Of a DNA stretch of 64,000 nucleotides, positions 169 through 54,810 are shown one piece after another. The notes under the pieces were generated by a model that saw nothing but the letters and a program-made list of their open reading frames with translations, did not search any database and had not been told where the DNA came from. The number at the start of each line of letters is the position of its first letter. Within the stretch, counting starts at the first letter, position 1. The position numbers were made by a program, and so were the translations under genes. Origin of the DNA: a virus; IMG/VR virus record IMGVR_UViG_3300031949_000010; one strand, written 5' to 3'.

Positions 169-336
169 ATGGGCATGATGGTGTCGCTTCTCACGTCCAA
201 GCTGAGGGCCCTGCGCGGGCTCGGGCTCGGGGACGCGGCGAAGGCGGCGATTCGGGCGGTCGGGGTCAAGAAGGACGACTGCGGGGGCTGCGAGAAGCGC
301 CGGAAGGCGCTCAACCGCTTCCGCCTCCCGAGGTAG
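169..336 (+). CDS. Small basic GLGD...CxxC protein (55 aa), viral-type
   Basis: SD aggagg upstream; MGMMVSLLTSKLRALRGLGLGDAAKAAIRAVGVKKDDCGGCEKRRKALNRFRLPR; resembles the GLGD..CGGC.KR..LN small proteins recalled from phage metagenomes. Confidence 0.7.
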   Translation: MGMMVSLLTSKLRALRGLGLGDAAKAAIRAVGVKKDDCGGCEKRRKALNRFRLPR

Positions 337-4863: not shown

Positions 4864-6537
4864 ATGGAAGATTCCGCTGCGGCCATCCCGGTCCCAGGAA
4901 CCCTCCTGGACCCCCCGGCCGCCCCAAGCCGCGCCGTCCGGGTCTTGCGCCTGAACGGCCATATGGGCGACGTCGTGATGGCCCTCCCGGTCCTCCGCGC
5001 CTTCCGAAGGGCGCATCCCCTCGACCGGATCCACTTTCTCGCGCAACCGAAATACCATCCCGTGCTCAAGGGGAACAGGGACGTGGATTTCGTGCGGGCC
5101 CTGGGGACACTCAAGGGGACCCCGGGGCATATCGACCTGGCGGACTTCCGCCGGCGCCCATGGGCGGCACGCTGGAGACACGTCGTCGACGCGATGGGTG
5201 ACGCCTGCGGGGTCGAAATCCAGGACCGGGCCTACCGCATGGTGATCCCGGGGGATGACGCGCGCTGGGCGGAAAACGAGGCGGCCGCGCTCGGCCAATT
5301 CGCGGTGATGCACGCCAGCTCCGCCATGGATTCAAAGGACTGGCCGATCGAGCGCTTCGGGACGCTGGCCGGCCGCCTGATCGGCGAGCTCTCGCTCAGG
5401 GTCGTCCAGATCGGCGCGAACGAGGACGCCCAGGTCGCCTGTCCGGGCGTGGTCGATCGGAGGGGCGCACTCTCGATCACCCAGTCGGCCGCCCTCATGG
5501 CGAGGGCGCAACTCTTCGTGGGGGTCGATTCCGGGCCCATGCACCTGTCCCGCGCCGCGCGCGAGGTGCCGGCAGTCGTTCTCTGGGGCGCTGGATCCCC
5601 GGTGACGACCGGGCTACCGGGCGGGCGCATCGCTAACCTGGACCCCGTCCGCTGGTGCGGGCACGGTGGCAGGCCCTGCCATTCCCGCTGCGACTGGACC
5701 TCGAAGTGCATCTCGGAGATCCACGAGGAGGACGCGTTCCGCGCGTGCGCCCGGGTCACGGGGCTCGTGCCCGAAGGGCCAGACCTCTCGATCATCCTCG
5801 TCAACTGGAATTCATGGGTCAAGTCGACCCACCCCATGGTCTCGAGGATCGACCGAACCTTGCGGGACGAAAGGGTTGAGCTCATCCTGATCGACAACGG
5901 CTCTCCAGCGGACGAGCAGCACGCTATCCAGTCGCTCTCGCGGCCATACCCCGTAAAGAGGGCAATCTGGCCGTCCAACCGCGGCTTGCCGGCCGCATGG
6001 AACGATGCCTCGAGGCTGGCTTCCGGCCGGATCCTCGCATTCATGAACACCGACCTCGACCTAGAGCCCGGGTGGGCGTCCTTCGCGATCGACTTCTTCC
6101 GTCGTAATCCCGCCGCCGACGTCCTCGGCCTGTCGGGAAACGAACCGCCCATGGCCTTCGGGCCCGGCCTGGCCAGGGAGAAGCTGCCGCTCGAGAGGGG
6201 ACGTACGACCCGTTGTCACCACATGATCGGATCCTGCTTCCTCGTGCGTAGGGAGGCCCTGGACCGCGTCGGCGATTTCGACCTCCGGTTCACGCCTGGC
6301 TACTGCGAAGACACGGACTGGTTCATGAGGGCCTCGCTGATGGGATCTCAGGTGTGGCACCACGCCGGTTTCGTGACGCATCGAGGCCACGAGGTCACCG
6401 TAAACATCAACAGAACCGACCTACGCCCCATCATCGCGCGGAACGACGCGTACTTCGAAGGGAAATGGGCGGGCGCCGAGCCGTCCAGGCTTTCTAAAGA
6501 AGCCCCAGCCGAGCGGCCAGCCGAGGTGGTCGCATGA
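4864..6537 (+). CDS. Fusion of GT9 (heptosyltransferase-like) and GT2 glycosyltransferases
   Basis: GT9 motifs HMGDVVMALP, KDWPIERF, FVGVDSGPMHL; GT2 motifs SIILVNWNS, LIDNGS, NRGLPAAWN, FMNTD, YCEDTDW. Confidence 0.9.
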   Translation: MEDSAAAIPVPGTLLDPPAAPSRAVRVLRLNGHMGDVVMALPVLRAFRRAHPLDRIHFLAQPKYHPVLKGNRDVDFVRALGTLKGTPGHIDLADFRRRPWAARWRHVVDAMGDACGVEIQDRAYRMVIPGDDARWAENEAAALGQFAVMHASSAMDSKDWPIERFGTLAGRLIGELSLRVVQIGANEDAQVACPGVVDRRGALSITQSAALMARAQLFVGVDSGPMHLSRAAREVPAVVLWGAGSPVTTGLPGGRIANLDPVRWCGHGGRPCHSRCDWTSKCISEIHEEDAFRACARVTGLVPEGPDLSIILVNWNSWVKSTHPMVSRIDRTLRDERVELILIDNGSPADEQHAIQSLSRPYPVKRAIWPSNRGLPAAWNDASRLASGRILAFMNTDLDLEPGWASFAIDFFRRNPAADVLGLSGNEPPMAFGPGLAREKLPLERGRTTRCHHMIGSCFLVRREALDRVGDFDLRFTPGYCEDTDWFMRASLMGSQVWHHAGFVTHRGHEVTVNINRTDLRPIIARNDAYFEGKWAGAEPSRLSKEAPAERPAEVVA

Positions 6538-7283
6538 GCAGGCAGACGCGGCGAGGCGCCGAAAATGTCCGGCAGGACCTGGCGACGAAGGAGCTTCGCC
6601 GTATCGCGCTACTCTGCCCGAATGGGATGGCCCGCAAGATCCTCTCTCAGGTGAAGGCCGAGCACCGGGCCAGGATTGAGGATGACCGGCGGCTCGTGAA
6701 GGACGTCCGGGGCAGGGGCGGCGTGTGCTTCCCGGGGGGCATGACAAGGGAGGAATGGGGAGACCGGCTACCGCGATCGCTGCACGGCCGTAAACGCCAC
6801 TGCGCCCCGAGCGACGAACTTGCCCAGGAGCTCTACGATCGGGGCCAACTTCCAGACCCGTCGACGGACGCGGTTCTTGACAAACTCTCGGGCGCGTACA
6901 CGCGCTCCCGCTCGGCCGTGCCGGCGCCGGACGAGAAGGAACTCCTCAAGGAGGCCAAGCGCCTAATCGGGGACGAGGTCCGGCTGGCCGTCCGGGAACT
7001 GGTAAAGAGCGCCGAAAGCCACTGCGAAGCTGCGTGTCCGCAGCCGCTTGAGGTATCCCTTTCGGGCCTGACAAGGGGATACTCGCTGGGCGCCGCGCAC
7101 GACCGATCTGCCACCATCGACGAGCGCCGGAAGGGGCTCCTACGGCTCGCGCGGCGCAAGGGATGCGCTCCCGTTCTACAAAGCCTCAAGATCGCTCGTA
7201 TCAAGGTCCGCGGCCGCGCGAGGGCGTCCGTTTCGGCGGACATCGCGTGGCTCCGGGTGCGAGGGCCCTGTTCGGCCAGATGA
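6534..7283 (+). CDS. Basic protein with C-terminal DUF5771-like domain
   Basis: C-terminal RGYS...ERRKGL.R.ARRKG...V...L......ADIAWLR parallels the C-half of ORF 54397..54810. Confidence 0.6.
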   Translation: MSRQTRRGAENVRQDLATKELRRIALLCPNGMARKILSQVKAEHRARIEDDRRLVKDVRGRGGVCFPGGMTREEWGDRLPRSLHGRKRHCAPSDELAQELYDRGQLPDPSTDAVLDKLSGAYTRSRSAVPAPDEKELLKEAKRLIGDEVRLAVRELVKSAESHCEAACPQPLEVSLSGLTRGYSLGAAHDRSATIDERRKGLLRLARRKGCAPVLQSLKIARIKVRGRARASVSADIAWLRVRGPCSAR

Positions 7284-9748: not shown

Positions 9749-9972
9749 TGCTTATAAACTCGATGAAGATGGTTGAGGCGAGCGCCTCCCAGGACGGGCT
9801 ACAGTGCTGGGTGGAGCGGTGCTCCCATAGGATTGGCGCCATGGAGTTGTACTTCATCGATACCTTGTGGGATCGGGTATATTGCCATCAGTGCGGGCTC
9901 TGCGTTAGGTTCCGGCGTAAGAGGGCCTTGAAGCGGGGCGAACCCCTGGAGACCGTGGAGGCTGAGCCATGA
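9745..9972 (+). CDS. Small Cys-containing protein (CxxC)
   Basis: ATGA-coupled on both sides; YCHQCG. Confidence 0.55.
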   Translation: MMLINSMKMVEASASQDGLQCWVERCSHRIGAMELYFIDTLWDRVYCHQCGLCVRFRRKRALKRGEPLETVEAEP

Positions 9973-12707
9973 GCAAAGTGACCGATCCAGACACCTTGGA
10001 CCGCTTCCAAGTTTGCGTCGACCCAATCGCCGAGAAGGTGTCGATACGAGGCTTGGGCACGGAACGGCACGCGGTGGATCAGACCGGGGACTCGGACGGG
10101 TCCACCACGTTTACGGACGCCGGTGCGAACTTCACTACGGACGGGGTCGTCGCGGGCGACATCCTCACCGTCGTCAGCGATCCAGCCAACAACAGCGGGA
10201 TCATCGGGCATTACCGTGTCGTGACGGTGGGGACGACCACCCTCACGGTCGAGCGTGCGATCCCCGCCTCGACGGGCGCCGACCTGACCTACAAGATCAA
10301 CGCAAAGCAGACGCCCGGAGCGGCCACCCCGCAGGTTGCCGACGGGGTCAACATGCAGGCGCTCTACAGTTTCCTCAAAGAGGAGTGGAAGACGCTGGCG
10401 GGTGGGCTCGGGAACGCAGTCGACCTCAACAAGTTCGATTTCCCGATGGTCTCGATCACGCCCGAGGAGTTCATCCTGGGAGGTACCAACGGCGACGCAG
10501 CTTCGGCGTGGACCTTCAACGATACGAACGGCACCCAATCGACCGACACGGAGGGGAAGACGAGAGAGCTTCTCCGCGACGGCGGCTGGCAGGAGCGGAA
10601 CGCGTCCAACCTCGTGCTCCGCGAGTACGCCAACATCACCACCCTGGGCAGCCTGGACTCCGATGCGCAGGCGTACTACCAGCAGGGCCGCTCCGATCAG
10701 ACTCCCGCAAACTTCAAGCTGACCGGACCCGTCAACCAGTCGATCTATACGCTCGAGGCTCCGGTCGTCCCGACCAACATCGCCTTCGCGGCCACCACGA
10801 TCACCCGCTTGGCTGGAGACTGGACGACGGATGGGTTCAAGCTGGGCGACTACGTCACGATCCGTTCCGCTGAGGACGCCGGTAACAACGGTACCTTCGG
10901 GCCGATCACGGCGCTCTCGGCAACCGTCATCACCATCGCGTCCGGGGCCTTCACCGTCAATGCCGACGACGATACGGCGACGTTCCTTCCGAACCACAAG
11001 TTCTACACGAAACTCTTCTGCCGGAAGAAGGGTCGCACCTACGCTTCGGCCGTTCACGCTGACGCCGGCATCTCGACCACGCTGGGAATCGGTCCCCGCG
11101 TGAACAAGTTTCCGCTGTCGCATGCCAACGACCCGGCCATCGTCTACCATGACGGAAAGCTGTCGGGCGGCGACGGCACCGCCTCGGGCAACCTCTTCCA
11201 GGAGACCGAGAACCACACGACGGGGTCCGACGGCGTTACCCAAGCGGCGGCCAGTGCGGCGGCGGATTCCTTCACGTTCACGTCTGCGGGGGCTACCTTC
11301 AATTCGCTCGCCCGCGGCGTGCAGGTCCTCAGGCCCGGAGACTCCATCGAGATCACGAGCGGCTCCGACCAGGGCGTGTACGAGATCAAGTCGATCGACT
11401 CCGCGACCCAGATCACCCTCTACAAGGAACCGACCAAGACCTACGTGGGCGGCCAGTCGTCGCTCACCTACGTCTGCCGAACCGGGATCAAGGACGTGGG
11501 GGCAGCCAACGCGACCCTCACCAACGTGGACGGAAGCACGGGCACGCTCGATTCGGCCGGCTCGACCTTCAACGCCGACAACGGGCTGGGCGACCGGACT
11601 GTCGCGGTGGGTGACATCGTCGAGGTCTCCGCCGGGACAGGAGCCGTCATCGGCTACTACAAAGTCACCGTGGTCAATTCGGCGACCCAGCTCACGCTCA
11701 ACACCAGCGACCAGATATTCGGAGGGCAAACCAGCCAGACCTACCGGATCTGGCGCCCCGGCATGTTCCTACAGAAGTTCGATACCGATCTCGTGGCGTC
11801 GGGCATGACGGATGGCCTCAACATCAACGGGGCCGGGAACCCTGACACGTTTACCCGCGTGGGAGGGAGTTGGGTCACGGACGGCTTCGTGCCTGGAGCG
11901 GCGGTCCGGCTCGCCGCAGCCGAGGACGCCGGGAACGTGGGGTCCTTCATCGTGGGCACGCCCACTCCCACGGCGACTGTCCTGACGCTCATCCTATCCG
12001 AGAGCGTCACGACGAACGCTGACGACGACACGGCCGTCAACGGGAACGTCACGGGGGAGTACGGCATCATCCGGACGATCAACCAGGTGAAGTACCCGTT
12101 CCACTGGAGAGTCTTCGCAAATGGAGGGGCCCTGTCGGACATCTTCCAGTTCCTCCAGCGAGAGTTGCGCCGCACCACGGACGTGGACGGTGGAAACGGG
12201 GTCGCACGAGGGGACATCACCGACCTCCTCATGAGTTTCGCTTCCCCGAACGGAACCACCCTAGACCTCTATCCGGACAACCTCGCGACCGCAGACTCGA
12301 ACAACGTCACCTTCCGCGACCTGACCAGCGACGACCGCACGAATGCCTTCATCGTCGGGATCACCATCGACGTTAACGCCAACCTTATCAACTCGGTCTC
12401 GAAGCGTCTGACGATGTACTTCACGACGAATCCTGGCGGAAACTTCGGGACAAACGGCGCGATCATTGTCGATGACAAGGACGGTGTGGACATCAATTTC
12501 ACGACGATCAACGGGGACATCCAGACCTCGTTCGACTACACCAACAACAGCCAGGGCGGGCGAACGCCGGACACGAATGCCGACGTCACAATCGTCGCCA
12601 TCGGCGATGACCTCGCCCAGCACGTGCTCGCTCAGGCCACTATCACGAAGGTGAATTCTATGACAGTCGCTGTCCAGCCCGCCCTCGAGAGGAATTACGC
12701 CACTTAG
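9969..12707 (+). CDS. Large beta-rich virion/spike-like protein (912 aa) with five internal repeats
   Basis: MSKVTDPD..., DGV.MQALYSFLKEEWK...FDFPM..IT scaffold recalled from phage proteins; repeats T.T....f.tDG...Gd.v.i. Confidence 0.8.
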   Translation: MSKVTDPDTLDRFQVCVDPIAEKVSIRGLGTERHAVDQTGDSDGSTTFTDAGANFTTDGVVAGDILTVVSDPANNSGIIGHYRVVTVGTTTLTVERAIPASTGADLTYKINAKQTPGAATPQVADGVNMQALYSFLKEEWKTLAGGLGNAVDLNKFDFPMVSITPEEFILGGTNGDAASAWTFNDTNGTQSTDTEGKTRELLRDGGWQERNASNLVLREYANITTLGSLDSDAQAYYQQGRSDQTPANFKLTGPVNQSIYTLEAPVVPTNIAFAATTITRLAGDWTTDGFKLGDYVTIRSAEDAGNNGTFGPITALSATVITIASGAFTVNADDDTATFLPNHKFYTKLFCRKKGRTYASAVHADAGISTTLGIGPRVNKFPLSHANDPAIVYHDGKLSGGDGTASGNLFQETENHTTGSDGVTQAAASAAADSFTFTSAGATFNSLARGVQVLRPGDSIEITSGSDQGVYEIKSIDSATQITLYKEPTKTYVGGQSSLTYVCRTGIKDVGAANATLTNVDGSTGTLDSAGSTFNADNGLGDRTVAVGDIVEVSAGTGAVIGYYKVTVVNSATQLTLNTSDQIFGGQTSQTYRIWRPGMFLQKFDTDLVASGMTDGLNINGAGNPDTFTRVGGSWVTDGFVPGAAVRLAAAEDAGNVGSFIVGTPTPTATVLTLILSESVTTNADDDTAVNGNVTGEYGIIRTINQVKYPFHWRVFANGGALSDIFQFLQRELRRTTDVDGGNGVARGDITDLLMSFASPNGTTLDLYPDNLATADSNNVTFRDLTSDDRTNAFIVGITIDVNANLINSVSKRLTMYFTTNPGGNFGTNGAIIVDDKDGVDINFTTINGDIQTSFDYTNNSQGGRTPDTNADVTIVAIGDDLAQHVLAQATITKVNSMTVAVQPALERNYAT

Positions 12708-22968: not shown

Positions 22969-23294
22969 CCCAGTGAGAATCGGCTTGTTTTGCAGTTGTG
23001 GCGCAGGGCTCGAAGGAGAACTGCCGGATTCTGCGGTCGATAGGTTGATCGCAATCTGGCGAGAGTGCCACCAGGGCCCTGGACACGGATCCTGCACGAA
23101 AAGGCAGGCTACCGAGGCAATGAAGAAAGCCGAGCTTTTGGACCTCCAGAGCAGACTGAGAATGAATCCTTGAACCACATTCTCCCACTACAGATGGGGT
23201 GGACACCGCCGGCGGGGACCAAAGCCCCGCCGGCGTGGCCTGCGCCATCAGGAGGCACTGGAATGGATCTCGACGACCCAAGGCAAAGGCAACC

Positions 23295-25091
23295 GTGAGT
23301 AAGATCTCCATTGGCAAGGCACCGGACGGGAGTACGGTCTACGCGGACCTGGACGTCTTGAGCCGCACGCGGGCGCTCATCCAGGCGAGCTCTGGCGGGG
23401 GGAAATCCTTCCTGATCCGGCGCCTGGCCGAGCAGATCTTCGGAAAGATACCGGAGTTCATCGTCGACGAAGAGGGCGAGTTCCCCTCGCTCCGCTGCGA
23501 GAAGTTCCCGTTCGTCCTCGTGGGAAAGGGAGGGGACACGCCGGCGGATCCCCGGTCGGCTCAGATCCTAGCGCACCGCCTCCTCGAGCACCGGGCCTCC
23601 GCGATCTTCGACCTCTCCGAGCTCAAACCTCAGGTTCGGCACCACTGGGTGCGGCTGTTCTTCGAAGCCCTCGTCGAGTCGCCGCGGGCTCTCTGGACGC
23701 CCGTCATCGTCTTCCTGGACGAGGCGCACCACTACGCGCCCGAGAAGGGCGACAGCGAAGCGCGCGGTGCCGTGGTCGACGCCGCCACCCGAGGCCGGAA
23801 GCGCGGAATCTGCCTCATCCCCGCGACGCAGCGCCTCGCGAAGCTCTCGAAGGACGTGAGCGGAGAGCTCCTCAACCGCTTGATTGGACCGACCTTCGAG
23901 GACCTGGACATCGAACGCGCGGCCGACCTCCTCTCGATCGTGAAGGCCGAGAAGGCCGACTTCGCCAAGTCGATGCGCGTCCTCGCGCCTGGCAACTTCC
24001 AACTCCTGGGACGGGCCTTTGGAACGGAGCGCATCCAGGTGAAAGTCGGGCCCGTCGAGACGACCCCCCCCGAGCTCGGGCGATCGAAGCGTATGCTCGC
24101 CCCGCCCCCGCCGCCCGAGAAGATCAAGGCCTTCCTCCCGAAGCTTCAGGATCTACCGAAGGAGGCGGAGGAGAAGGCGAAGACGGAGGCCGAACTACGT
24201 GCCGAGATCCGATCACTCAAGACCCAACTCGCCGTCAAGCCGACGGGCTCGGTCATCGCCAAGCCTACAGAGAAGGCGGCGACCCTCAGGATTGAGGTTC
24301 CAGTCGTCAAGCCAGCCGAGCTCCTGCGGGTGGAGAAGGCCATGGGCCGCGCTGTTGAGGCGGCGAACCGAGCTCAGGAGGCCGCGGGCCACCTCAGGGG
24401 CTTCTCGGATCTGATCCAAGAGCGGATCGCGTCGGTCGATAAGAAGCAACGACAGACTGACGCGTCGAGGATCCGCGCAGCCGTCACCGAAGTCCGGGTA
24501 CCCCGGGTACCCCTTAAAACGCCTCTGGAACGGCCCCAGACCGTCAAGAAACCGGCGAATATTATTCACGCCGAAAAAGCGCCCCAGGATGGCCAGGGAA
24601 CGACTCCTGCGCAGGGACGCATCCTGAACGCTTTGTCGGACTTCTACTCGATCGGCCGGTCCGAGGTGCCGAGGACATGGGTCGCCGCCCGCGCGGGCGC
24701 AAGCCATCGCTCCGGTGGCTTCAAGAACAACCTGGGGAGGCTCCGCGCCTTGGGCTTAATCGACTACGGCGGCGCCGGCACCGTCCACCTGACGGAGGCC
24801 GGCCTAGATGCGGCGCCCCCGCCGGACCGCCCCAGCACGACCGAGGCCATGCTGCAGAGTTGCGTCAAGGTGCTCTCTCCGGCGCAGGAACGGATCCTGC
24901 GAGCGGTCTTCGACGCCTTTCCTGGCGTGCTCGTCCGGGAGGATCTCGCGGCCGCCGTCGGGGCCTCGTCGACGTCCGGGGGCTTCAAGAACAACCTGGG
25001 CGCGCTACGGTCGGCTGGCATGATCGAGTACCAGCAGGGCGGCGTGAAATGCGCCAACTGGATCTTCGTGGAAGAGAGGGCCACGGCATGA
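23295..25091 (+). CDS. HerA/DUF87-like P-loop ATPase with two C-terminal winged-helix repeats (598 aa)
   Basis: Walker A ASSGGGKS, Walker B IVFLDEAH, GRKRG..LI.ATQR; SGGFKNNLG.LR..G.I.Y occurs twice. Confidence 0.88.
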   Translation: MSKISIGKAPDGSTVYADLDVLSRTRALIQASSGGGKSFLIRRLAEQIFGKIPEFIVDEEGEFPSLRCEKFPFVLVGKGGDTPADPRSAQILAHRLLEHRASAIFDLSELKPQVRHHWVRLFFEALVESPRALWTPVIVFLDEAHHYAPEKGDSEARGAVVDAATRGRKRGICLIPATQRLAKLSKDVSGELLNRLIGPTFEDLDIERAADLLSIVKAEKADFAKSMRVLAPGNFQLLGRAFGTERIQVKVGPVETTPPELGRSKRMLAPPPPPEKIKAFLPKLQDLPKEAEEKAKTEAELRAEIRSLKTQLAVKPTGSVIAKPTEKAATLRIEVPVVKPAELLRVEKAMGRAVEAANRAQEAAGHLRGFSDLIQERIASVDKKQRQTDASRIRAAVTEVRVPRVPLKTPLERPQTVKKPANIIHAEKAPQDGQGTTPAQGRILNALSDFYSIGRSEVPRTWVAARAGASHRSGGFKNNLGRLRALGLIDYGGAGTVHLTEAGLDAAPPPDRPSTTEAMLQSCVKVLSPAQERILRAVFDAFPGVLVREDLAAAVGASSTSGGFKNNLGALRSAGMIEYQQGGVKCANWIFVEERATA

Positions 25092-25313: not shown

Positions 25314-26177
25314 ATGATGGCGAAAAAGCCCGCGCACAAGAAGAAGACCTGCATGAACCCGAATTGTGGGCGAGAGTTCATCCCCGGCCACTATGGGGAC
25401 AAGCAGAAGGTCTGCTCGGGCAACTACATAGCCCAGTGCCGGCATTGCAAGGGAAAGGAGTGCCGAAAGTGCGGCGGCGCCGGCTCGTATACGGAATCCT
25501 GCAAGGCCTGGTACAGGCAGCATTGGGGCCAGACGAGGAGCGTGCCGAGGGGGATCCCGGACATCGACTTCCAGAAGATCCTGAGCCGCCTGAAGGCGGA
25601 CCTTTTTTGGTGGAGCTACTTCGTCGTGGCTCGGGAAAGCGCCCTCCGGAAAGGAGAGCAACTCGGGCTCTCCTGGTCCGACGTGCTCGATGGGGAGGGC
25701 GTCCGGAGTTCGTTTGTCGTCCGTGGCCAGTGGAAGGACCGCCAGGGATTCAGGCCGACGAAGACAGGAGACGGCAAGATCGCTTTCCTTATGGGGCCCG
25801 CCCGCAAGGCCCTGCAGGTCCTCCGGAGGACCATGAAGAAAGACGACGGGTGGGCCTCCCGCCGGATCTGGGACGTGACAAAGTCGTCCGTCTGGGCTAA
25901 GTGGACGACCCTCCAACGGGGGCTCGGAATCACGAACCCGGATAGCCACGAGCCTTATCGCGTCCACGACATCCGCCACACGGCGGCGCTCCGGACCTGG
26001 CGTGCGACCCGGGACATCACGCGGGCCCAGAAGCTCCTCGGCCACAAGAGCCTCTCCACGACGACGATCTACACCCAGGAGCGCCCGGAGGACTTCGTGA
26101 GCGACCTCGAGAAGGCCCTAGAGAAGGGGAACGGAAAGGCCAGGAAGGCAAAGCGCAAGGGGAAGGGGAGAAGATGA
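25314..26177 (+). CDS. Tyrosine recombinase catalytic domain with Cys-rich N-terminus
   Basis: R (ALRKGEQL), K (RPTKT), HxxR (VHDIRH), LLGH, TTTIY. Confidence 0.88.
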   Translation: MMAKKPAHKKKTCMNPNCGREFIPGHYGDKQKVCSGNYIAQCRHCKGKECRKCGGAGSYTESCKAWYRQHWGQTRSVPRGIPDIDFQKILSRLKADLFWWSYFVVARESALRKGEQLGLSWSDVLDGEGVRSSFVVRGQWKDRQGFRPTKTGDGKIAFLMGPARKALQVLRRTMKKDDGWASRRIWDVTKSSVWAKWTTLQRGLGITNPDSHEPYRVHDIRHTAALRTWRATRDITRAQKLLGHKSLSTTTIYTQERPEDFVSDLEKALEKGNGKARKAKRKGKGRR

Positions 26178-28866: not shown

Positions 28867-29901
28867 GTGAAGTCGGTGCCTATCGTCCTGCTCGTGGATG
28901 CCAGCTACCCGACCCGGAAGGGCCACGGCTGGTACTACAACCTCGGGCTGGCAAAGGCACAGAATTGGTGGAGATCCCAGGGGGCCGAGGTCCGGCTGAT
29001 CGCGCCGCCCGTCACCCTGTTCGACGCGGCCCACGTCAAGGTGGCGTTCGTCTCCGCGATCTTCTCCTGGGACGTCCTGAAGGCCCTCGAGATCGCGGAG
29101 GGGCTCCGGGGCGTGGGGATCTCCGTCGAGGTCGGCGGCCCCGGCTTCTTCGCCCTGCGGGACCTGGCGCGGTCTAAGGGCTTCGAGCCCCAGGTGACGG
29201 TGGACGCCCGCTTCGACCGCCAGCCGGGCACCTACGATGCGGTCTTCTGGTCCCGGGGCTGCCCGGCCTACAACTGCACCTTGGGCTACCCGAAGGACGG
29301 GACGCGGCCGGTCTGCCTCGTCCCGGAGATGGAGGGCTCGAGGTCAACGCTCTACGAGGACGTGACCCCCGCGCCGATGATCCTCGACAACAACCTCTCG
29401 GCGCTGCCCCGCGCCCACCAGGAGCGCATCGTCGAGCGGACGCTGGCGGCGGGCTTCAAGACGGTGGACTGCAACAGCGGCTTCGAGCCCCACTCCTTCA
29501 AGCCCGAGACGGCCTCGCTCTGGAAGCGGCTTCCGCTGGTCGCGTGGCGGTACGCCTACGACGAGGCCGGGGAGCGCAAGGCCGTCCTGAAGGTGTTGGG
29601 CATCCTGGACGGGCTGGGGATCCCGCGCCGGAAGTCACATATCTACTGCCTAGCCGGGAACGAGCCGGTGGAGGCTTGCGAGGAGCGCGTCCGCGAGATC
29701 CGCTCCTGGAAGGCCGTCCCTGTCGTCCAGCGCCGTCGCCCGCTCGACTGGACGGGCGGGGAGCTTCCGACGCTGCACGACTGGACCGAGCGCAAGCTGA
29801 TCGACTTCCAGCGGTGGGGCAACCGCCTCTCCCATTCGATGCCTTTCGCCAAGTACGACCCGCGCCTGAACCACTCGGGCGTGAAGATGAAGGGAGCGTA
29901 G
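28867..29901 (+). CDS. Phage-type radical-SAM-like protein (344 aa)
   Basis: NLGLAK...GAEV, F.W, VGGPG, SRGCPAYNC...C.VP..EG, LDNNL, VDCNSG.E, RYAYD. Confidence 0.7.
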   Translation: MKSVPIVLLVDASYPTRKGHGWYYNLGLAKAQNWWRSQGAEVRLIAPPVTLFDAAHVKVAFVSAIFSWDVLKALEIAEGLRGVGISVEVGGPGFFALRDLARSKGFEPQVTVDARFDRQPGTYDAVFWSRGCPAYNCTLGYPKDGTRPVCLVPEMEGSRSTLYEDVTPAPMILDNNLSALPRAHQERIVERTLAAGFKTVDCNSGFEPHSFKPETASLWKRLPLVAWRYAYDEAGERKAVLKVLGILDGLGIPRRKSHIYCLAGNEPVEACEERVREIRSWKAVPVVQRRRPLDWTGGELPTLHDWTERKLIDFQRWGNRLSHSMPFAKYDPRLNHSGVKMKGA

Positions 29902-47975: not shown

Positions 47976-48499
47976 GGGGAGCCCTCCTCAAGTACCGCGC
48001 TCCCCCCCAGAGAGGCCCTTCGGGAGACGTCCGGCGGAAGGTGCGAGGACGGCCAGGTCTCGATCAGGTCCTCGGGGGCGCCGATTCCGCCATGGGGCGC
48101 GAATCCCTGCTTGGCGAGCGCATGAGCGTGTTGGGAGGCATGCGCCCAGTCCCTGAAGGCGAGCCCGCGTCCACGCCACCCGAAAACGACGAAGAACGGC
48201 TGGCCTGCGTCTGGGCGCTCGCCCAGGAGCGCCCGTGCCCGCACGCTGCGGGCGTGAGACCAGAGGGCCCGCCCTTTTGCCGTGGGCATCGGCCTCCCAG
48301 AACGCGTCTGCCGGACGAGGCCCCTCGATTTCAACTCGGAAAGATCGGCCGTCCAGCGCTCCCCCTCCTCGTCGCCTTCGCCATCCAGGAGCATGCCGAG
48401 AAATGACGCCATGATGTCCAAGTCGGCACGCTCGGCGGCCGCAGGGCGCTCCGCTACCTGCTCCACGGCGCGATCGAGTAGAACGGCGAAACGATCCAT
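47972..48499 (-). CDS. Hypothetical protein
   Basis: GTGA coupling to the downstream gene; start uncertain. Confidence 0.55.
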   Translation of the reverse strand: MDRFAVLLDRAVEQVAERPAAAERADLDIMASFLGMLLDGEGDEEGERWTADLSELKSRGLVRQTRSGRPMPTAKGRALWSHARSVRARALLGERPDAGQPFFVVFGWRGRGLAFRDWAHASQHAHALAKQGFAPHGGIGAPEDLIETWPSSHLPPDVSRRASLGGSAVLEEGSP

Positions 48500-48975
48500 G
48501 GGTAGTACGGCACCTGGCCCGTGGGCCCGACGGGGGACCCCGGGTAGTACGGCTGAACCCGCCCTGGCGCGGTCGCTTGGGCAGGTCCCATCTTCTCGAG
48601 TCCGGCTCGGAGCGCCCGCACGCGCGCGGCCAGCGTCGCATGCGCCGCCACAGCTCGCCGGCGCTCGTCCAAGCCCTCCTCAAGCCGCGTGGTGGCCTGG
48701 TCGTGCCGCTGGCCGACCTGGCCAAGCTTACGAAGCCATGCGGGCGTCATCAGCCGGTCGAGCGTCCCGTTGGAGAGGGCACGCCTCGCCTCGAGAGCCA
48801 TGGCGCCCATCCAGTCCGACGTGATCCTGTGGGCCTCCTCTCGCGCGCCCACCGCGGACTGGATCGAGGCGAGGATGCCCTCGGCTTTCTCCAGGTCATG
48901 GAGCGCGCGCGCAAGCTTCTCCTGCGCCTCCGCCCGGGCCCGGGCGTCCACCGGGGCGACCTGTCCCATCCTCAT
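48454..48975 (-). CDS. Coiled-coil protein with Pro/Tyr/Trp C-tail (family B)
   Basis: SD gaggagg; MRMGQVAP...QPYYPGSPVGPTGQVPYYPWIVSPFYSIAPWSR. Confidence 0.7.
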   Translation of the reverse strand: MRMGQVAPVDARARAEAQEKLARALHDLEKAEGILASIQSAVGAREEAHRITSDWMGAMALEARRALSNGTLDRLMTPAWLRKLGQVGQRHDQATTRLEEGLDERRRAVAAHATLAARVRALRAGLEKMGPAQATAPGRVQPYYPGSPVGPTGQVPYYPWIVSPFYSIAPWSR

Positions 48976-49017
48976 CGAGATTCCTCCTCGGCCGTTCCGG
49001 CCGCGTCAGGCAGCCCC

Positions 49018-49601
49018 TCAGGGCGGGCATTCCTTGGCCTTGCAGAGCTCCGCCGCCGCCTCTGCCTCCTTGAGCGTGGCGAAAGGCGTGGCCCGTGAGC
49101 GCCGTCGGGCCCTGCCGCAACGTCCCCCCGTCGTCCGGAGGAAACCCCTGAGGTCATTCGTAGTTGGGTCGAACAGCGCGACCACGAAGCCCTTCCCCGC
49201 GAGCCCCTCATCCACAACCGCGCAGGGCGGCATGGGCGCCCCAGACACTCCAGCCGCTGGACGCCGGCAGGACGCCGGCGTGGTCACAATTCCCTCCGGA
49301 GCGTGATCGAGAGCCTCCTGGCGTAATCGGGCCTTCCGTCGGCCTTCCAGACGCGGGCCTGCTCCTGAGCCTCCTCGACAAGCATCCGGAATCCCTCTCG
49401 GGCCGCCTCGATCCAGTGGGGATCCCGGCTGAGGTCCGCCTTCATTCCCTCGAAAATCGCTTCGGCGACACGGCTCACCCACGGAAGCACGGGGTCGTCC
49501 GTGCGCCGGATCATGGCGCGCCCCGCCAGGACGCGCTGGACCTCGCCTAGAACGGCCTCCTCGACCAAGTCAAGCGCCTGGGCGAGCGAGAACGCGGCCA
49601 T
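49018..49601 (-). CDS. Two small hypothetical proteins (49018-49287, 49284-49601)
   Basis: SD aaggag before 49601; GTGA overlap. Confidence 0.55.
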
Positions 49602-49603
49602 AG

Positions 49604-49909
49604 CTACTCCTTGCCCATGATACGGCCGATGATCGAGCAGATGTCGAGGAGCGCCGCGAACGCGCTCACAATGCCCACCGTCCAGCCGGCCGTCGACCAG
49701 AAGCCGGAGGCGATGATGCCGAGGTATACCCCGATTGCGCCAGTCGAGCCGTGGACGAGAAGACGCACGGCGTCGCCCACCCATCCCGGAAGCCCCATCA
49801 TCCCGTCCCAGGTCTGACCGAGGCCGAGCGGTGGCCGCGCCGCTGGACGCGCTCCAGCGAAGCTGGGCCGTGCGAAGCGGGCTGCGGAGTCGAGGATGGT
49901 CGGGGTCAT
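49604..49909 (-). CDS. Small multi-TM membrane protein with GLGQ leader
   Basis: ARFARPSFAG...PLGLGQTW; hydrophobic C-half. Confidence 0.7.
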   Translation of the reverse strand: MTPTILDSAARFARPSFAGARPAARPPLGLGQTWDGMMGLPGWVGDAVRLLVHGSTGAIGVYLGIIASGFWSTAGWTVGIVSAFAALLDICSIIGRIMGKE

Positions 49910-50844
49910 CGAGGGCCCCCGGAAGAGTAATAGTAGGGCATTTGGGGCTTCGCCGAGGCGGTGGGGGAGGTCGCTGTCGGCACCGCAACTATGACCTGAG
50001 GGATGATGGCCGTTTCAGGCGACCACCATTTTCTAATGTCGATCCTCAACCCCCGCATCCGGACGCACCAGACGAACCAGGCGTGCATGTCCGCGCTGGA
50101 TGCAAACTTCCCCTGCATGGTCTCCTTCAGTTCTCGCGCCGCGTCCTTCATCTCATTCTCGGCGCTCTTGACAGCCCCAGCCGGGGCCCTGCGAGCGGTC
50201 TGCGCGTTGTACTCGGAGACGGCCGTTTCAAGGTTCTTCGCCAGGATACAGAGTTCATCCCAGATGACGGGCACTTTCGCAGGCACGGCGGGCGCGCGGG
50301 GAACTCCGGCCGACGGGGCGGGGGTGGGCGTGGGAGCCGGCGCGGATACTGGCTGCTGCGGCTGAAGGGCGCGGAGAATCGCCTCCTTCTCCCAGAGGAG
50401 GGCCTGCATCTTCGCGCGTAGGGCCAGGTCAGTCTCGATCCTTGCCGCCCAGAGTTTGGCCTGATTTTCTGGGAAGTCGCGCTCGAGTTGCTTTATTCTC
50501 CACTCCTCGTAGCCCAGCCAGCCGCTGGCGCGAGCCGCCCGGAGCCGTTCTGCGTCGCGTTCGTAATCTTCCGCATTCCGGCGGATCGCCTCGTAGAGGT
50601 TGGTCATCTCCAAGTCGATCTGGTCGACGGTTTTCGTTGGCACGGCGGGCCGCGCGCTCGGGGTGGAGGACGTCACCGCTGCCGGAGGGAGTTGGGCGAA
50701 CCCGGGGCGGAGCCGATCCCACAGGCGGTTCAGGTCCTTGGAATAGTCCCGGTACTGGTCGCGCCAGTAGTCGATCATCGGCTGGGTCGCCGAGGGCGGT
50801 TGCCCGAGCGCCCTTCTCCGCGCATGAAAGGCCATCGGAAGCAT
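49906..50844 (-). CDS. Coiled-coil/Pro-rich protein (312 aa) with ALGQ leader and PYYY tail
   Basis: TGATG coupling; MLPMAFHARRRALGQPP... Confidence 0.7.
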   Translation of the reverse strand: MLPMAFHARRRALGQPPSATQPMIDYWRDQYRDYSKDLNRLWDRLRPGFAQLPPAAVTSSTPSARPAVPTKTVDQIDLEMTNLYEAIRRNAEDYERDAERLRAARASGWLGYEEWRIKQLERDFPENQAKLWAARIETDLALRAKMQALLWEKEAILRALQPQQPVSAPAPTPTPAPSAGVPRAPAVPAKVPVIWDELCILAKNLETAVSEYNAQTARRAPAGAVKSAENEMKDAARELKETMQGKFASSADMHAWFVWCVRMRGLRIDIRKWWSPETAIIPQVIVAVPTATSPTASAKPQMPYYYSSGGPR

Positions 50845-51308
50845 CAGAGCACCGAGAGAAGAAGTGAGAGAATCGTGGGCAACCCGACGCCGGCCACCGC
50901 AGTCAGCACGGGTGGCGCCGCCGGGACCCCGAGGAGTGGCTCGGCGCACTTCGCGAAGGCCTCGATCGCCTTGATCTGGGCTAGGTCAAGTGACATCGGC
51001 CCCTGGCCACCCTGGGAGATCCGGGACAGCGTGTCGATCGCCCGGTCGAGATCTGGAACCTGCTCGACCAGGTCCTTCATGCAGACATCGGCCCGCGCGG
51101 CCGCCTTCCGCTCCGAAGTCGAAGCGCCCCCCCGGGCAACGGCCTCGAGGGCCCGCGCGACGGCGTCCCTGGAGCTTCTGGCAAGAGCGAGCAGCCTTTC
51201 GGCCGAGGGCCGGTCCAACTCCGCCCGTGGCGGGAGCTCCGGCTGCTCCCGGACGTCCGGGGGCGCGGGAAACTCCGGCAAGGGCCCGAGATCACGATGA
51301 CCGGGCAT
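50844..51308 (-). CDS. Tail-anchored protein, paralog family A (shortest member)
   Basis: KAAARADVC...AIEAFAKC...VAGVGLPTILSLLLSVL. Confidence 0.75.
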   Translation of the reverse strand: MPGHRDLGPLPEFPAPPDVREQPELPPRAELDRPSAERLLALARSSRDAVARALEAVARGGASTSERKAAARADVCMKDLVEQVPDLDRAIDTLSRISQGGQGPMSLDLAQIKAIEAFAKCAEPLLGVPAAPPVLTAVAGVGLPTILSLLLSVL

Positions 51309-51528
51309 TCGCCTCCCTTGCGATCATGCTTCTCCTCAGCTTGAGCCCCACGAGCCGCGCGGCGAGGCTCTCGGCCCGCGCCCTTGCGCCAGAGCCCCCC
51401 GTGGAGAGCGCCAGGCGCTCGGCCGTCTCCACGGCCTCCTCCGCCGTCGGGATCGCAATCTCGTCCATATACCTCAGCGCCCAGGATGGGCTGGCCGGCG
51501 GCGGGCCCCCCATGAGAGCCTGTCCCAT
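51292..51528 (-). CDS. Small protein (78 aa), MGQALMG leader
   Basis: TGATG coupling. Confidence 0.55.
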   Translation of the reverse strand: MGQALMGGPPPASPSWALRYMDEIAIPTAEEAVETAERLALSTGGSGARARAESLAARLVGLKLRRSMIAREANARSS

Positions 51529-52499
51529 CAGAGAAAGATACCCGGAAATGCCTGAACGCGCAACCCCGCCCCGTAGGGTGGAAACCACGGGAAGGAAGGG
51601 GCTGAGACAGGAACGGTGACCTGCGAGCGCGGTGCCGGGATGGGAGGGCGCGGCGCGGCGGGCCCCATAACAAGCCGGTCTGACGGCGGGACGATCCGGA
51701 TGCTGGGGGGAGAGTAGGTCGCCCCCTTTGGGAGCGCGCAGAGCTCGTATCCGACCCGCTTCACCCAGGCGATTTCGGGCGCTGTCAGGAACTCGGTTAC
51801 TTGCTCGTTGAAATTGGACGCCTCACGCCGCGCTCGCTCGTAGGCGTCCTGGCCAGCCTGCCCCGTGGTCGTTCTGGCCCGGTTCTGCTCGCGGCAGATG
51901 AGTTCCCACTGCTTGGCGAGTCCCCAGAGCTCGCGCTCGCGGGTTCCCCGCGGCCACGGGTTCTGGCTCTGGCCGAGCGCGGCACCGGATCTGATGCCCG
52001 CCTCTGCGAGCGCCAGCATCCGCCCGATCAGGGCCAGGGGGACGTCGACCCTCGATCCCGGCGGCGTTGCAGCCGCCGTAAGGGCCTCGCGCGCTGCCGA
52101 CGAGGCTGCGGCATGGCGCACCGCCGAGAGACCCCGGGGAGCGGCCACGGCGCCCTCGTAGCGCTCCATCGCGCGGGCTGGCGGGGGAACGAGGGAGACG
52201 AGATCTGTGCCGGAGGCTTTGGCCAGCCAGCGGAGCGTCTGGCCTGAGAGCGATGCCGTGCCGGCCGGCGGGGGTGCCAACTCGTCCGCGCTCGTCCGGT
52301 CAACTCCTGGACAGTCCTCGGCGCGGAATGCGGCGAGCGCGGCACCGCGGCCGGCGGCATTCAGGCGGGACTCGAGGACGACGGCGAAGACATGCCGCCA
52401 GTTGTCTACTGCGGGCTTATTGACCCTCGACCGGGCCTGCGAGTAGTCGCGGGCGACCTGGCAGAGGGCGGCGACTACGTCCTTCAGGGTATCGGCCAC
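51528..52499 (-). CDS. Ala/Pro-rich protein (323 aa) with internal ALGQ and aromatic Pro tail
   Basis: SD gaggagg; ...SFPWFPPYGAGLRVQAFPGIFL. Confidence 0.65.
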   Translation of the reverse strand: MADTLKDVVAALCQVARDYSQARSRVNKPAVDNWRHVFAVVLESRLNAAGRGAALAAFRAEDCPGVDRTSADELAPPPAGTASLSGQTLRWLAKASGTDLVSLVPPPARAMERYEGAVAAPRGLSAVRHAAASSAAREALTAAATPPGSRVDVPLALIGRMLALAEAGIRSGAALGQSQNPWPRGTRERELWGLAKQWELICREQNRARTTTGQAGQDAYERARREASNFNEQVTEFLTAPEIAWVKRVGYELCALPKGATYSPPSIRIVPPSDRLVMGPAAPRPPIPAPRSQVTVPVSAPSFPWFPPYGAGLRVQAFPGIFL

Positions 52500-52508
52500 G
52501 GGACCTCC

Positions 52509-53318
52509 TCAGGCGGCAACCAGGACGGACCCCACGATGGGTAGCCCGGTTCCGATTAGTGCTTCGAGCCAGGGCGTACCTGCAGGCTCGGCTCCGGCCG
52601 TTCCGAGCGCCTCCTCTACGCAGCGGGCGAAGGCCTCGAGCGCCTCCGCCTGAGCAGGCGACACGCGTGCGGGACGCCCTTCTATCTTCGCGGCGCAGAG
52701 TTCGTCGACCAGCCGACGGAGCTCCCCAACTTGCGTTCGGAGTTCGATCAGGCATCTCTCTCCGGCAGCCGCCGCGCCCTTCTCGGCCGCCGTCGCGCTG
52801 CACCTCCGAGCGCGGATCCGGGCACGCTCTATCTGGATCCAAGCGGTTTCCGAGAGCTCGAGGATGCGGGTCACGATGCCGATCTCGATCATTCCCACTC
52901 CCGGGATCGGGGGCACCTTGGCGGGCGGCGGCGGACGGATGAAAGGTGGAAGAATGGCGGTGGGCGGGATCACGGGCCGCGGCCGAGGTGGAATGGGCGG
53001 TCCGATGATCGGAGGAGACGTGGGCGGCGGCGGCATGATTTCAACCGTTGGCGGAGGCGCGAGCGACGGTGCCGGCGGGACGACGGGCGATGGGGGAGCT
53101 CCGCCCGGGACGCAAATGGGGCACGGAGGCTCATTCTGGGGCTTCGCCGTGCTGACCCAGGTGAGGATGCACTTCCCGGTGCCAGTGTCATAGCACTTGA
53201 CGAGACCGCCTTCCTGGCAGCACTGGATCTGCCCCAGGCCCGCCTGGCCCATCAGCCAGTGCATCGTCTTGTGGCTCAGGCTGACGTATTCCTTTCCCAT
53301 GCTCGCCATCTTCGTCAC
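52509..53318 (-). CDS. Family A: Cys-rich head, Pro stalk, helical domain, TM anchor
   Basis: GLGQIQCC...; GAAAAGERC...ALEAFARC...IGTGLPIVGSVLVAA. Confidence 0.8.
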   Translation of the reverse strand: MTKMASMGKEYVSLSHKTMHWLMGQAGLGQIQCCQEGGLVKCYDTGTGKCILTWVSTAKPQNEPPCPICVPGGAPPSPVVPPAPSLAPPPTVEIMPPPPTSPPIIGPPIPPRPRPVIPPTAILPPFIRPPPPAKVPPIPGVGMIEIGIVTRILELSETAWIQIERARIRARRCSATAAEKGAAAAGERCLIELRTQVGELRRLVDELCAAKIEGRPARVSPAQAEALEAFARCVEEALGTAGAEPAGTPWLEALIGTGLPIVGSVLVAA

Positions 53319-54094
53319 GCCGCAATCAGGATGGAGGCGGCCGCCGGCAACGCGACGCCCGCAACGGCCTTGAGCCAGTTGGGCGAGGAGTCGGGCGCGA
53401 TCGCCGCAATCTCGCCCAGACAGGCAACCAGAGTCTCGAGGGCCCCGACCTGCCGCGCGTTCAAGCGCGCCGCCCTACCCGCCCTCTTGGCGGCACAGAG
53501 CTCGCCGACTGCCGCTGAAAGCGTGCCGGCGGCGACCGTGAAGCCGGCTAGGCACTGCTTCGCCTGCGTTGCGGCCATCTTGTCGGATTCACTCGCCCCG
53601 CAGCGCTGCCCGCGCAGAATGGCCGCCTCGGCGCTCTCCCATGCCGCCTCTGCCTTGGAAAGGATGCCTTCGACTGCTGCCGTGTCGACTGGTCCCGTTG
53701 GCCCGGTCGGAGGAGGCGGCCGCGATGGCGTGAAGGGAAATTGCCCGCCTGGAAAGCCCTGCCCAGGCGGTGGTGCCCATGGGAAAACGCCCGGAAAGAA
53801 CGTGGGCGGCGGGACCGGGGGACCCAGGGGTGCCCCTCCTCCCCAACCAGGGTCAGGGCGGGGATCTCCGGCCCCCGGGGGGGCGGGAATGCCTCCGCCG
53901 CCGGTCGTCAGGTCGATGGTGCCCGTTCCGCCCCCTCCCGCGCCCCCGCCGGCGTCAGCGCCTCCGGGAGCAGGCGCGCCTCCCGGGACGCACGTGAAGC
54001 TCTCGGTGAGGTTGTCAGGGCTTATCGTGACCTGAGGAACCATACCCGGAGGGCACTGCTGGCCGAGGGCCATCGAAAGACGGACAGGCATCAT
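53315..54094 (-). CDS. Family A: two-Cys head, Gly/Pro stalk, helical domain, TM anchor
   Basis: MALGQQCPPG...; KMAATQAKQC...ALETLVAC...VAGVALPAAASILIAA. Confidence 0.8.
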   Translation of the reverse strand: MMPVRLSMALGQQCPPGMVPQVTISPDNLTESFTCVPGGAPAPGGADAGGGAGGGGTGTIDLTTGGGGIPAPPGAGDPRPDPGWGGGAPLGPPVPPPTFFPGVFPWAPPPGQGFPGGQFPFTPSRPPPPTGPTGPVDTAAVEGILSKAEAAWESAEAAILRGQRCGASESDKMAATQAKQCLAGFTVAAGTLSAAVGELCAAKRAGRAARLNARQVGALETLVACLGEIAAIAPDSSPNWLKAVAGVALPAAASILIAA

Positions 54095-54103
54095 GGGAGT
54101 CTC

Positions 54104-54394
54104 CTAGCTTCCGCTCGCGGCGACCCAGACGAGCATTCCGCCGCCGACGGTGATCCTAAAGAGCCTGAAAACGGTGGACCAGCCGCCCTGGTCCTGGGAC
54201 GCGAAGAGCGACACGAGGCCCTCGCCGACCAGGACGACGCCCGAGACCGCCAGGGCGACGCCAAGGGCACTCGTCAGGGGCACCTTCGGTACGGTGTGGC
54301 CCTCGAAGATGATGGCCGGCACGCTCGATCGCGCGCGGGAGATCCCCGTGGTTCGGCCTCCGAAGGAGGGGCTCGCGAAGGCGCGCTGCCGCAT
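54104..54394 (-). CDS. Small two-TM membrane protein (96 aa)
   Basis: MRQRAFASPSFGG...; ALGVALAVSGVVLVGEGLV; FRITVGGGMLVWVAA. Confidence 0.65.
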   Translation of the reverse strand: MRQRAFASPSFGGRTTGISRARSSVPAIIFEGHTVPKVPLTSALGVALAVSGVVLVGEGLVSLFASQDQGGWSTVFRLFRITVGGGMLVWVAASGS

Positions 54395-54396
54395 TC

Positions 54397-54810
54397 TCAC
54401 CGTCCCTTCGTCTTGAGCTCGCAGAAGGCCTGATCCCGAAGCCAGTTCATGTCGGCCCCCGCAGCCCTTTTCGTGCCTGGGTCGGCGGTCTTGTTTCGGA
54501 GTAGGTTGAGCCTGCGAATCGCCTCTCCGCACCCATCCGCGTCCACGACCTTCCGCAGGATCCCGTGCCTCGTGCGCGGGGCCATCTTCTTCTTCCAGCC
54601 GCGGAGCCCGCCTGGCCGGATCTCAGGGAGCGTCCTCCGTGAGGGTGGCGTCTTCCCGGGCGCGCCGGTGTCCGGAACGCAGCCGGCGGAGACCTGGACG
54701 CCCTGCTTCGTCGTGTAGGCGCGCCGCAGGATGAACTGGGGTGGGCAGGTCCTCGCGGCCCCCAGCCGGAGGTCTCCCAGCGTGCTCGGGAGCGCCCTAT
54801 TCTTGCCCAC
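54397..54810 (-). CDS. Basic DUF5771-like protein (NCLDV-type), 137 aa
   Basis: CPPQFILRRAYTTKQG..V...CVPDTGAPGK...RHGILRKVV...G....IRRLNLL......ADMNWLR. Confidence 0.75.
   Translation of the reverse strand: MGKNRALPSTLGDLRLGAARTCPPQFILRRAYTTKQGVQVSAGCVPDTGAPGKTPPSRRTLPEIRPGGLRGWKKKMAPRTRHGILRKVVDADGCGEAIRRLNLLRNKTADPGTKRAAGADMNWLRDQAFCELKTKGR

Follow-up and report, generated by a model that had tools for sequence, protein, structure and literature searches.

The stretch of DNA analysed here (the window) comprises 64,000 nucleotides (nt) of IMG/VR virus record IMGVR_UViG_3300031949_000010 and is part of a 96,369-bp contig. Between positions 48454 and 54810 it carries a cluster of ten minus-strand genes, with 1,968 amino acids (aa) of product in total, in which a tripeptide of Leu or Met, Gly and Gln (hereafter [LM]GQ) recurs, in most cases behind a short N-terminal leader. 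The same tripeptide and its variants were observed in a second block, of plus-strand genes, near the beginning of the window. The genes concerned are as follows, each being named below by its lower coordinate; family A stands for tail-anchored paralogues that have a C-terminal domain in common.

48454 to 48975, minus strand: 173-aa coiled-coil protein; MGQ at residues 3-5 (48961-48969) and a second site, LGQ, at residues 84-86 (48718-48726).
49604 to 49909, minus strand: 101-aa two-helix membrane protein; 29-residue leader, then LGQ at residues 30-32 (49814-49822).
49906 to 50844, minus strand: 312-aa coiled-coil and Pro-rich protein; 12-residue basic leader, then LGQ at residues 13-15 (50800-50808).
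50844 to 51308, minus strand: family A tail-anchored protein of 154 aa; N-terminal variant DLGPLP, with LG-P in place of LGQ.
51292 to 51528, minus strand: 78-aa protein; MGQ forms its very first residues (51520-51528).
51528 to 52499, minus strand: 323-aa two-domain protein; internal LGQ at residues 175-177 (51969-51977).
52509 to 53318, minus strand: family A tail-anchored protein of 269 aa; tandem MGQ (53244-53252) and LGQ (53229-53237) ahead of a Cys-rich head.
53315 to 54094, minus strand: family A tail-anchored protein of 259 aa; 9-residue leader, then LGQ at residues 10-12 (54059-54067).
54397 to 54810, minus strand: 137-aa basic protein; N-terminal variant TLGDLRLG.
169 to 336, plus strand: 55-aa basic protein; variant GLGLGD.
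706 to 1545, plus strand: family A gene; 10-codon leader (706-735) ending in MG, then an in-frame TGA (736-738); LGQ at 1024-1032 ahead of a Pro-rich stalk.
1582 to 2547, plus strand: gene for a tail-anchored protein; 8-codon leader (1582-1605) ending in LG, then an in-frame TGA (1606-1608).

These positions were obtained by translation, and every instance listed in the original prediction, which had been made from the letters of the DNA, was found at its gene and position. Over 29 aligned instances, L or M followed by G and then Q was fixed. Arg was frequent 3-6 residues before the Gln and was the first or second commonest residue at each of P3-P6 (numbered from a cut after Gly), the residue ahead of L/M was mostly Ala, Gly or Arg, and the residue after the Gln varied between families; several instances read Arg-Gly-Leu-Gly-Gln. 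In the leaders, 2-29 residues precede the motif across five unrelated families, and these segments are predicted to be flexible. Placement of the motif in short leaders, as had been proposed, was observed for most sites; the three that lie elsewhere begin at residue 175 in 51528, at residue 84 in 48454 and at residue 75 in the 802 protein. Six motif-bearing proteins have a tail anchor or a transmembrane segment, and the carriers lacking a membrane segment (48454, 49906 and 51528) end in aromatic, Pro-rich tails.

Marked enrichment of the tripeptide was observed for the cluster. Within-protein shuffles gave an expectation of 0.69 ± 0.84 [LM]GQ against nine observed, and none of 5000 shuffles (0/5000) reached nine, in agreement with the enrichment over shuffled controls that had been predicted; the first-order Markov expectation was 2.6. 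Gln followed [LM]G in 9 of 27 cases, while it makes up 3.6% of the residues (binomial p = 3e-7). For the rest of the window, seven [LM]GQ were counted against 3.5 expected (p = 0.06), and the comparison between cluster and rest gave a Fisher p of 4e-5 with an odds ratio of 9. Per 1000 aa, the cluster holds 4.6 [LM]GQ and the six-frame background of the whole window 0.30, a 15-fold difference. As a post-hoc control all tripeptides of the cluster were ranked: LGQ came second (6 vs 0.51 expected) and MGQ fifth (3 vs 0.13), and the rest of the top five is owed to runs of proline or to a block of paralogues. The sites of 52509 and 53315 are paralogous, hence not independent counts.

The enrichment is confined to the form with Gln. 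For [LM]G followed by any residue, 27 cases were counted against about 20 expected by our own arithmetic from residue counts, which is no clear enrichment, and the generic LG↓X version of the motif (the arrow marks the proposed cut) is not borne out. Nor is its supposed virus-wide scope, since the motif is limited to two gene blocks, at 0.1-2.5 kb and 48.4-54.1 kb.

Conservation of the motif was examined in the related elements, which are few. L001 is syntenic with the cluster at 87% identity; L002, L004 and L003 are 56%, 51% and 41% identical, respectively, L005 and L006 are more distant, and L007 covers the 0.1-3 kb block of the window. No relatives of the cluster were found in viral_contigs or genome_contigs. 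Relatives that are 41-62% identical retain seven of the nine cluster sites. At the same sites the codons for Gly and for Leu differ synonymously among the window, L001 and L002, the Gly codon of the 49604 site being GGT, GGC and GGG in the three elements. Because of these synonymous differences, the conservation is considered to be at the level of protein, and a DNA- or RNA-level motif is excluded. L and M alternate among orthologues, and for this reason LGQ and MGQ are treated as one motif.

The N-terminal motif of the 48454 protein, whose gene has GGAGG 7 nt ahead of the ATG, is retained in L001, L002 and L004 (51-57% identity), three lineages showing MGQ, LGQ and MGQ. The LGQ at residue 84 is gone in all three relatives and, as judged from this alignment, is a chance occurrence. 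For the 49604 family, the comparison of 12 homologues down to 51% identity showed that G31, Q32, T33 and D35 are invariant, with L30 replaced by M once, and that the linker ahead of the motif is variable in both length and sequence. The leader itself contains invariant F12 and F17 and nearly invariant M1, P3, T4, D7, R11 and P15. In an AlphaFold model built from the 12-sequence alignment (mean predicted local distance difference test (pLDDT) score 81), residues 1-30 scored 49-56 per 10-residue block and residues 31-100 at least 83, the helical hairpin being confident from about residue 31, that is, from the motif onward.

The gene upstream of 49906 has a stop codon that overlaps the start codon of 49906 (ATG at 50844); in L001 the junction reads TGATG, and the product has 312 aa in the database gene call as well. 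In this family LGQP is invariant in L001, L002 and L003 (41-88% identity) and the preceding leader residues vary. As judged from the coordinates, the ATG of 51292 (at 51528) and the stop codon of the gene at 51528-52499 have one base in common; the L001 homologue has the same TGATG junction and MGQ start, and the motif is absent in L002. The internal LGQ of the 51528 protein is retained in L002 (62% identity), where the residues preceding it differ and the segment following it is conserved. The AlphaFold model of this protein was made from three sequences and is weak for its low mean pLDDT of 65; in it residues 170-178, which hold the motif and lie between two helical domains, form the sole internal segment below 50.

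Within family A, the LGQ of 53315 (AGGAG 6 nt ahead of the ATG) is retained in L001, where it was read in frame, and in P0021, P0023 and P0028. Both tandem motifs of 52509 are retained in L001 and P0025, which are close relatives only; the distant homologues P0031, P0055 and L005 have LAG/MAG and LDG/LGD at the two positions. The DLGPLP variant of the 50844 type is found in L001, L002, P0024 and P0026, and L003 has IGPLP. P0024 carries both forms, an MGQ leader standing ahead of Asp-Leu-Gly-Pro-Leu-Pro (the loci of the variant are 51282-51308 of the window, 9447-9935 of L001 and 1466-1966 of L002). Of the other variants, GLGD of the 169 protein is retained in the L007 homologue, and the N-terminal Thr-Leu-Gly-Asp-Leu-Arg-Leu-Gly of the 54397 protein in the distant L005 homologue (5499-5927). 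The latter homologue has a weak precomputed match to DUF5771, and no family was detected for the window protein by hmmscan at E ≤ 0.01.

The leaders might have been sequence upstream of the true start codons. This is excluded by the Shine-Dalgarno sites, the overlapping stop-start junctions and the conservation at protein level. In L001, the 53315 homologue (6423-7170) is called as 110 aa though the full frame with leader and LGQ is intact, and the 49906 homologue (9935-10873) is called as starting after the leader though its full frame is also intact. Because public gene calls shorten these two motif-bearing genes, the leaders are under-reported among database proteins.

An out-of-sample test was made with family A. 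A profile of the C-terminal domain gave 48 representatives among 1.84 billion proteins, of which the 29 that lie on other contigs and have at least 39 residues ahead of the domain were used. Ten [LM]GQ were observed in these proteins against 1.5 expected; nine of them, where 0.39 would be expected, fall within residues 1-30, and these nine are spread over 8 of the 29 proteins. The N-terminal regions of these eight motif-bearing proteins otherwise differ. The proteins are homologues of those in the window, so the sample is not fully independent; the bias in position and the varied flanks nevertheless argue for an N-terminal feature that is maintained as such.

The boundary at which the leader would end is suggested by the two genes with an in-frame TGA. 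Both cases had been pointed out before and were read again by translation, as MG-TGA at 736-738 and LG-TGA at 1606-1608, and both are retained in L007. In this element the first leader (~1321-1353) has diverged with MG-TGA kept and the frame open into a tail-anchored protein, and the second leader and its TGA (~2194-2220) are identical to those of the window. In the window, too, the frame past the TGA of either gene is open into the tail-anchored protein. The TGA occupies in both genes the exact position of the Gln of other genes. Because a conserved TGA stands where Gln would be, a functional boundary immediately after the Gly appears to be favoured by these genes. The LGQ at 1024-1032 in the 706 gene is retained in L007 and P0033.

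Two further features of the carriers were observed. Many leaders open with Met-hydrophobic-Pro, as MLP, MTP, MMP, MVP and, at 2949, VIP (starts at 50844, 49909, 54094, 706 and in the 3428 region), and leaders of relatives L002, L004 and L005 start with MIP; the leaders may thus have a conserved N-terminal end besides the LGQ end. The aromatic tails are of the types YYPW, PYYY and FPWFPPYG (48454-48500, 49906-49950 and 51528-51600) and are retained in L002 and L004; these Pro-rich tails may be a second shared tag.

As read from the sequences, [LM]-G-Q is a selected short linear motif, usually with Arg or Lys 2-5 residues upstream and a small residue before it. It marks the junction of a short N-terminal leader, or of an inter-domain linker, with a folded body, in at least five unrelated families, and lies where disorder gives way to order in the two AlphaFold models. 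A common recognition site is proposed because of the enrichment, the selection at protein level, the conservation among orthologues, the occurrence in unrelated families and the location at flexible junctions. It is likely that one common factor reads the motif at the leader junction, and the motif probably marks a shared site of processing or sorting. The original prediction had spoken of a virus-wide LG↓X code for processing or sorting: a real and selected junction motif in unrelated families is what stands of it, and the formulation was too broad.

The mechanism that we favour, tentatively and at somewhat below an even chance, is that the common factor is a protease which cuts the Gly-Gln bond and so removes a targeting leader. 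Such a factor would read the motif within a flexible segment, would act as a processing protease on the Gly-Gln bond, and would by this cut take off the leader during assembly; the closest analogue would be the capsid-targeting leaders of phage T4, which are taken off by the prohead protease. We infer the common reader, its nature as a protease, the bond to be cut and the membership of the carriers in a particle. Several observations weigh against leader proteolysis. Pfam (E ≤ 1e-3 or 1e-2) and PHROGs searches of about 75 window proteins gave neither a Ulp1/adenain-like protease, which had been suggested as the one to look for, nor a member of any other peptidase family. In three proteins MGQ begins at residue 1 or close to it, where a cut would take off only 2-4 residues, and the 49604 leader carries conserved residues of its own and is more than a disposable spacer. 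In the most distant family A relatives (L005, P0031 and P0055) the motif is missing or has Asp or Gly in place of Gln, and orthologues and paralogues share ancestry, so that the counts are not fully independent. In the 50844 type the residue after LG is Pro, a poor P1' residue for most proteases, and an invariant Gln at P1' is itself unusual among proteases that cut after Gly.

Four other explanations were weighed, and leader proteolysis after Gly was ranked ahead of an uncleaved docking tag, followed by a transglutaminase Gln donor and then by chance with shared ancestry. The leader with its LGQ could be a permanent tag for docking or sorting that is bound by a partner in the scaffold, the capsid or the membrane assembly, like the cargo peptides of encapsulins. 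The enrichment, the conservation and the flexible location fit such a tag equally well, conserved residues in the 49604 leader are what is expected of a binding peptide, no protease was found among the window proteins, and a cleavage site would make poor sense where MGQ occupies residues 1-3. In the 51528 protein, however, the internal site at residue 175 lies in a disordered inter-domain linker and looks more like a processing site than a terminal tag, and the two TGA genes end the leader exactly after the Gly, suggesting that leader and body are separable; we regard a docking tag as unlikely. That no common reader exists, and that the pattern reflects composition, chance and shared ancestry, with leaders spread as homologous modules by duplication or recombination, is considered improbable. 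LG is common in GC-rich proteomes, the motif was picked after the data had been viewed, 52509 and 53315 are paralogous and the tandem pair of 52509 is possibly an internal duplication. Furthermore, among the nine sites that at residue 84 of 48454 is plainly due to chance, the 51292 site is lost in L002, [LM]G with any following residue is not enriched (27 vs ~20), and distant L005 retains only one [LM]GQ in 15 genes. Even so, collapsing the paralogues and dropping the weak sites leaves some six independent sites where about 0.6 would be expected, and LGQ ranks second of all tripeptides in the cluster. The sites are invariant while adjacent leader residues and codons change, a strong bias to the first 30 residues was observed in the out-of-sample homologues, and the two-helix membrane protein, the coiled-coil proteins and the family A bodies have no other similarity to each other.

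The remaining two explanations assign the key role to the Gln. It could be the acyl donor of a transglutaminase, cross-linked to a Lys of a neighbour so that membrane proteins are stapled to a shell or to each other. In the 49604 family the Gln is as invariant as the Gly, which would be natural for a reactive residue. Most bacterial transglutaminase-fold proteins of the proposed kind are, however, proteases and not cross-linkers, and mammalian tissue transglutaminase acts poorly on Gln that is followed by Pro, the order found in the 49906 family. The microbial transglutaminase favours Gln near hydrophobic residues in flexible regions of the chain (PMC2777024), and the motif Gln, in a flexible segment and with a hydrophobic residue two positions ahead, matches this preference. 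The position of the Gln is, on the other hand, a TGA in two genes and Asp or Gly in distant homologues, none of which can donate an acyl group, and the donor role is held to be quite improbable. We give as little credence to a combined scenario of a new maturation chemistry, in which a transglutaminase-fold enzyme trims the leaders, or cross-links through the Gln, in a group of uncultured prokaryotic viruses that are membrane-containing and probably tailless, with the UGA of two genes setting the ratio of leader to body. A literature search gave nothing relevant on transglutaminase-like proteases in membrane-containing phages. Finally, the chain could be cut after the Gln, with Leu or Met at P3, Gly at P2 and Gln at P1, by an enzyme like the prohead proteases of T4 or phiKZ type. 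A three-residue layout, with a hydrophobic or small residue first, any residue second and Glu third, and with cleavage C-terminal to the Glu, is established in T4, phiKZ and SPN3US (PMC5694885). Gln resembles Glu in shape, and its invariance would be better explained at P1 than at P1'. The window proteins gave no match to a prohead protease family, in both conserved TGA genes the leader stops at the Gly and not one residue further, and Asp or Gly replaces the Gln in distant homologues; cleavage after Gln is very hard to credit.

Returning to leader proteolysis after Gly, no published description of such a motif system was found in a literature search. If the motif is a mark for processing or sorting, it would provide an easy rule by which particle or membrane proteins could be recognised from sequence in a group of uncultured virus-like elements from soil, whose proteins have no match among known families. 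Maturation proteases are familiar from tailed phages, adenoviruses, poxviruses and African swine fever virus (ASFV); we know of none in PRD1-like phages. The proposed reading, if true, would point to a maturation system in prokaryotic membrane-containing viruses, and a junction that is merely conserved, with no common reader, would be of little wider interest.

The element that carries the two blocks has a guanine plus cytosine (GC) content of 58-74% within the window. By GC at the third codon position, genes run on the plus strand over ~0.1-45.8 kb and on the minus strand over 45.8-64 kb, and no transfer RNA gene was found in the window. A HerA/DUF87-like (HerA/FtsK-like) ATPase of 630 aa is encoded at 23199-25091. 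It is 36-39% identical to ATPase genes of three uncultured phage records, and the PHROGs 'terminase large subunit' phrog_2666 matches over its P-loop part. This ATPase is the only virus-like hallmark that could be confirmed in the window. A tyrosine integrase is encoded at 25314-26177, and a long run of sugar-nucleotide and glycosyltransferase genes is also present. Because no capsid gene was confirmed in the window, we speak of a virus-like element. The searches with Pfam and PHROGs gave no family for the proteins described here except one sub-threshold WXG100-like match, and the 49604 and 52509 proteins had no tblastn match to cultured or deposited phages even at E = 1. Third-position GC is higher in the gene at 28867-29901 (344 aa; 0.94) than in any other gene of the window, and the product of this gene shows a weak match to a radical S-adenosylmethionine (SAM)-like PHROGs family and 24% identity to a radical SAM gene of an archaeal virus. 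A B12-binding domain was detected by Pfam in one of 55 further window proteins scanned.

Among known systems of N-terminal or internal processing, the comparison with viral proteases that cut near Gly had been made in the original prediction. Adenain cuts at (M/I/L)-X-G-G↓X and (M/I/L)-X-G-X↓G, poxvirus I7 at A-G↓X and ASFV pS273R at G-G↓X. As in these systems, in which the cuts in precursors of membrane-containing or tailless double-stranded DNA viruses are marked by a hydrophobic residue and then Gly, a hydrophobic residue precedes Gly in the motif. Here, in contrast, Leu or Met stands directly before a single Gly, Gln follows, and neither a second Gly nor Ala-Gly is needed. The motif does not fit the consensus of these enzymes, P2 being always L or M and never Gly in the 29 instances.

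Bacterial leaders show other partial likenesses. Double-glycine leaders are cut after Gly by C39 papain-like peptidase domains, a Cys-His type of enzyme, and resemble the present leaders in being short, N-terminal and devoid of a hydrophobic core, with the proposed cut after Gly. The leaders of the window differ in that no Gly-Gly, Gly-Ala or Gly-Ser pair is present (L or M at P2 in 29/29) and no acidic/hydrophobic pattern lies upstream; an ATP-binding cassette (ABC) transporter carrying a C39 domain is also absent from the window. The staphylococcal Prp cysteine protease cuts an N-terminal motif that ribosomal protein L27 has in common with the capsid and scaffold proteins of phage 80-alpha, and need be encoded neither beside its substrates nor by the virus. 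One short N-terminal motif on unrelated proteins is the common point; the Prp motif ends in Phe-Phe before Ala, its substrates are soluble, and both host and carriers differ here. A class III (type IV prepilin-like) signal peptide is excluded, as a polar or Pro-rich sequence follows the Gly, with no hydrophobic helix of about 20 residues directly after it and no hydrophobic segment within 10 residues in any carrier. A twin-arginine translocation (Tat) signal and a lipobox are excluded as well, there being no hydrophobic region that follows and no lipobox Cys. As to N-myristoylation of the MGQ starts, the fifth residue after Gly is unlike the usual preference, and the expression signals are bacterial; this was also rejected.

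In T4 and giant phages, N-terminal targeting leaders of 10-20 residues on unrelated head proteins are removed at a three-residue motif, and related A/S/G-X-E sites are used in phiKZ, 201phi2-1 and SPN3US (PMC5694885). The capsid targeting sequences of T4, removed by gp21, are like the present leaders in being short N-terminal extensions of unrelated proteins that end in a three-residue motif. The motif here, however, is Leu/Met-Gly-Gln and not hydrophobic-X-Glu, and a conserved Glu is found neither within it nor beside it. Tail-anchored or membrane proteins carry it, in an element with no recognisable tailed-phage genes, and Pfam and PHROGs searches of the window proteins gave no prohead protease of the S77/U9 type. 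Because the Glu-based motif and the protease family are both missing in the window, the LGQ junction is not counted as a member of the T4 system; by analogy it nevertheless works most like a T4 capsid targeting sequence.

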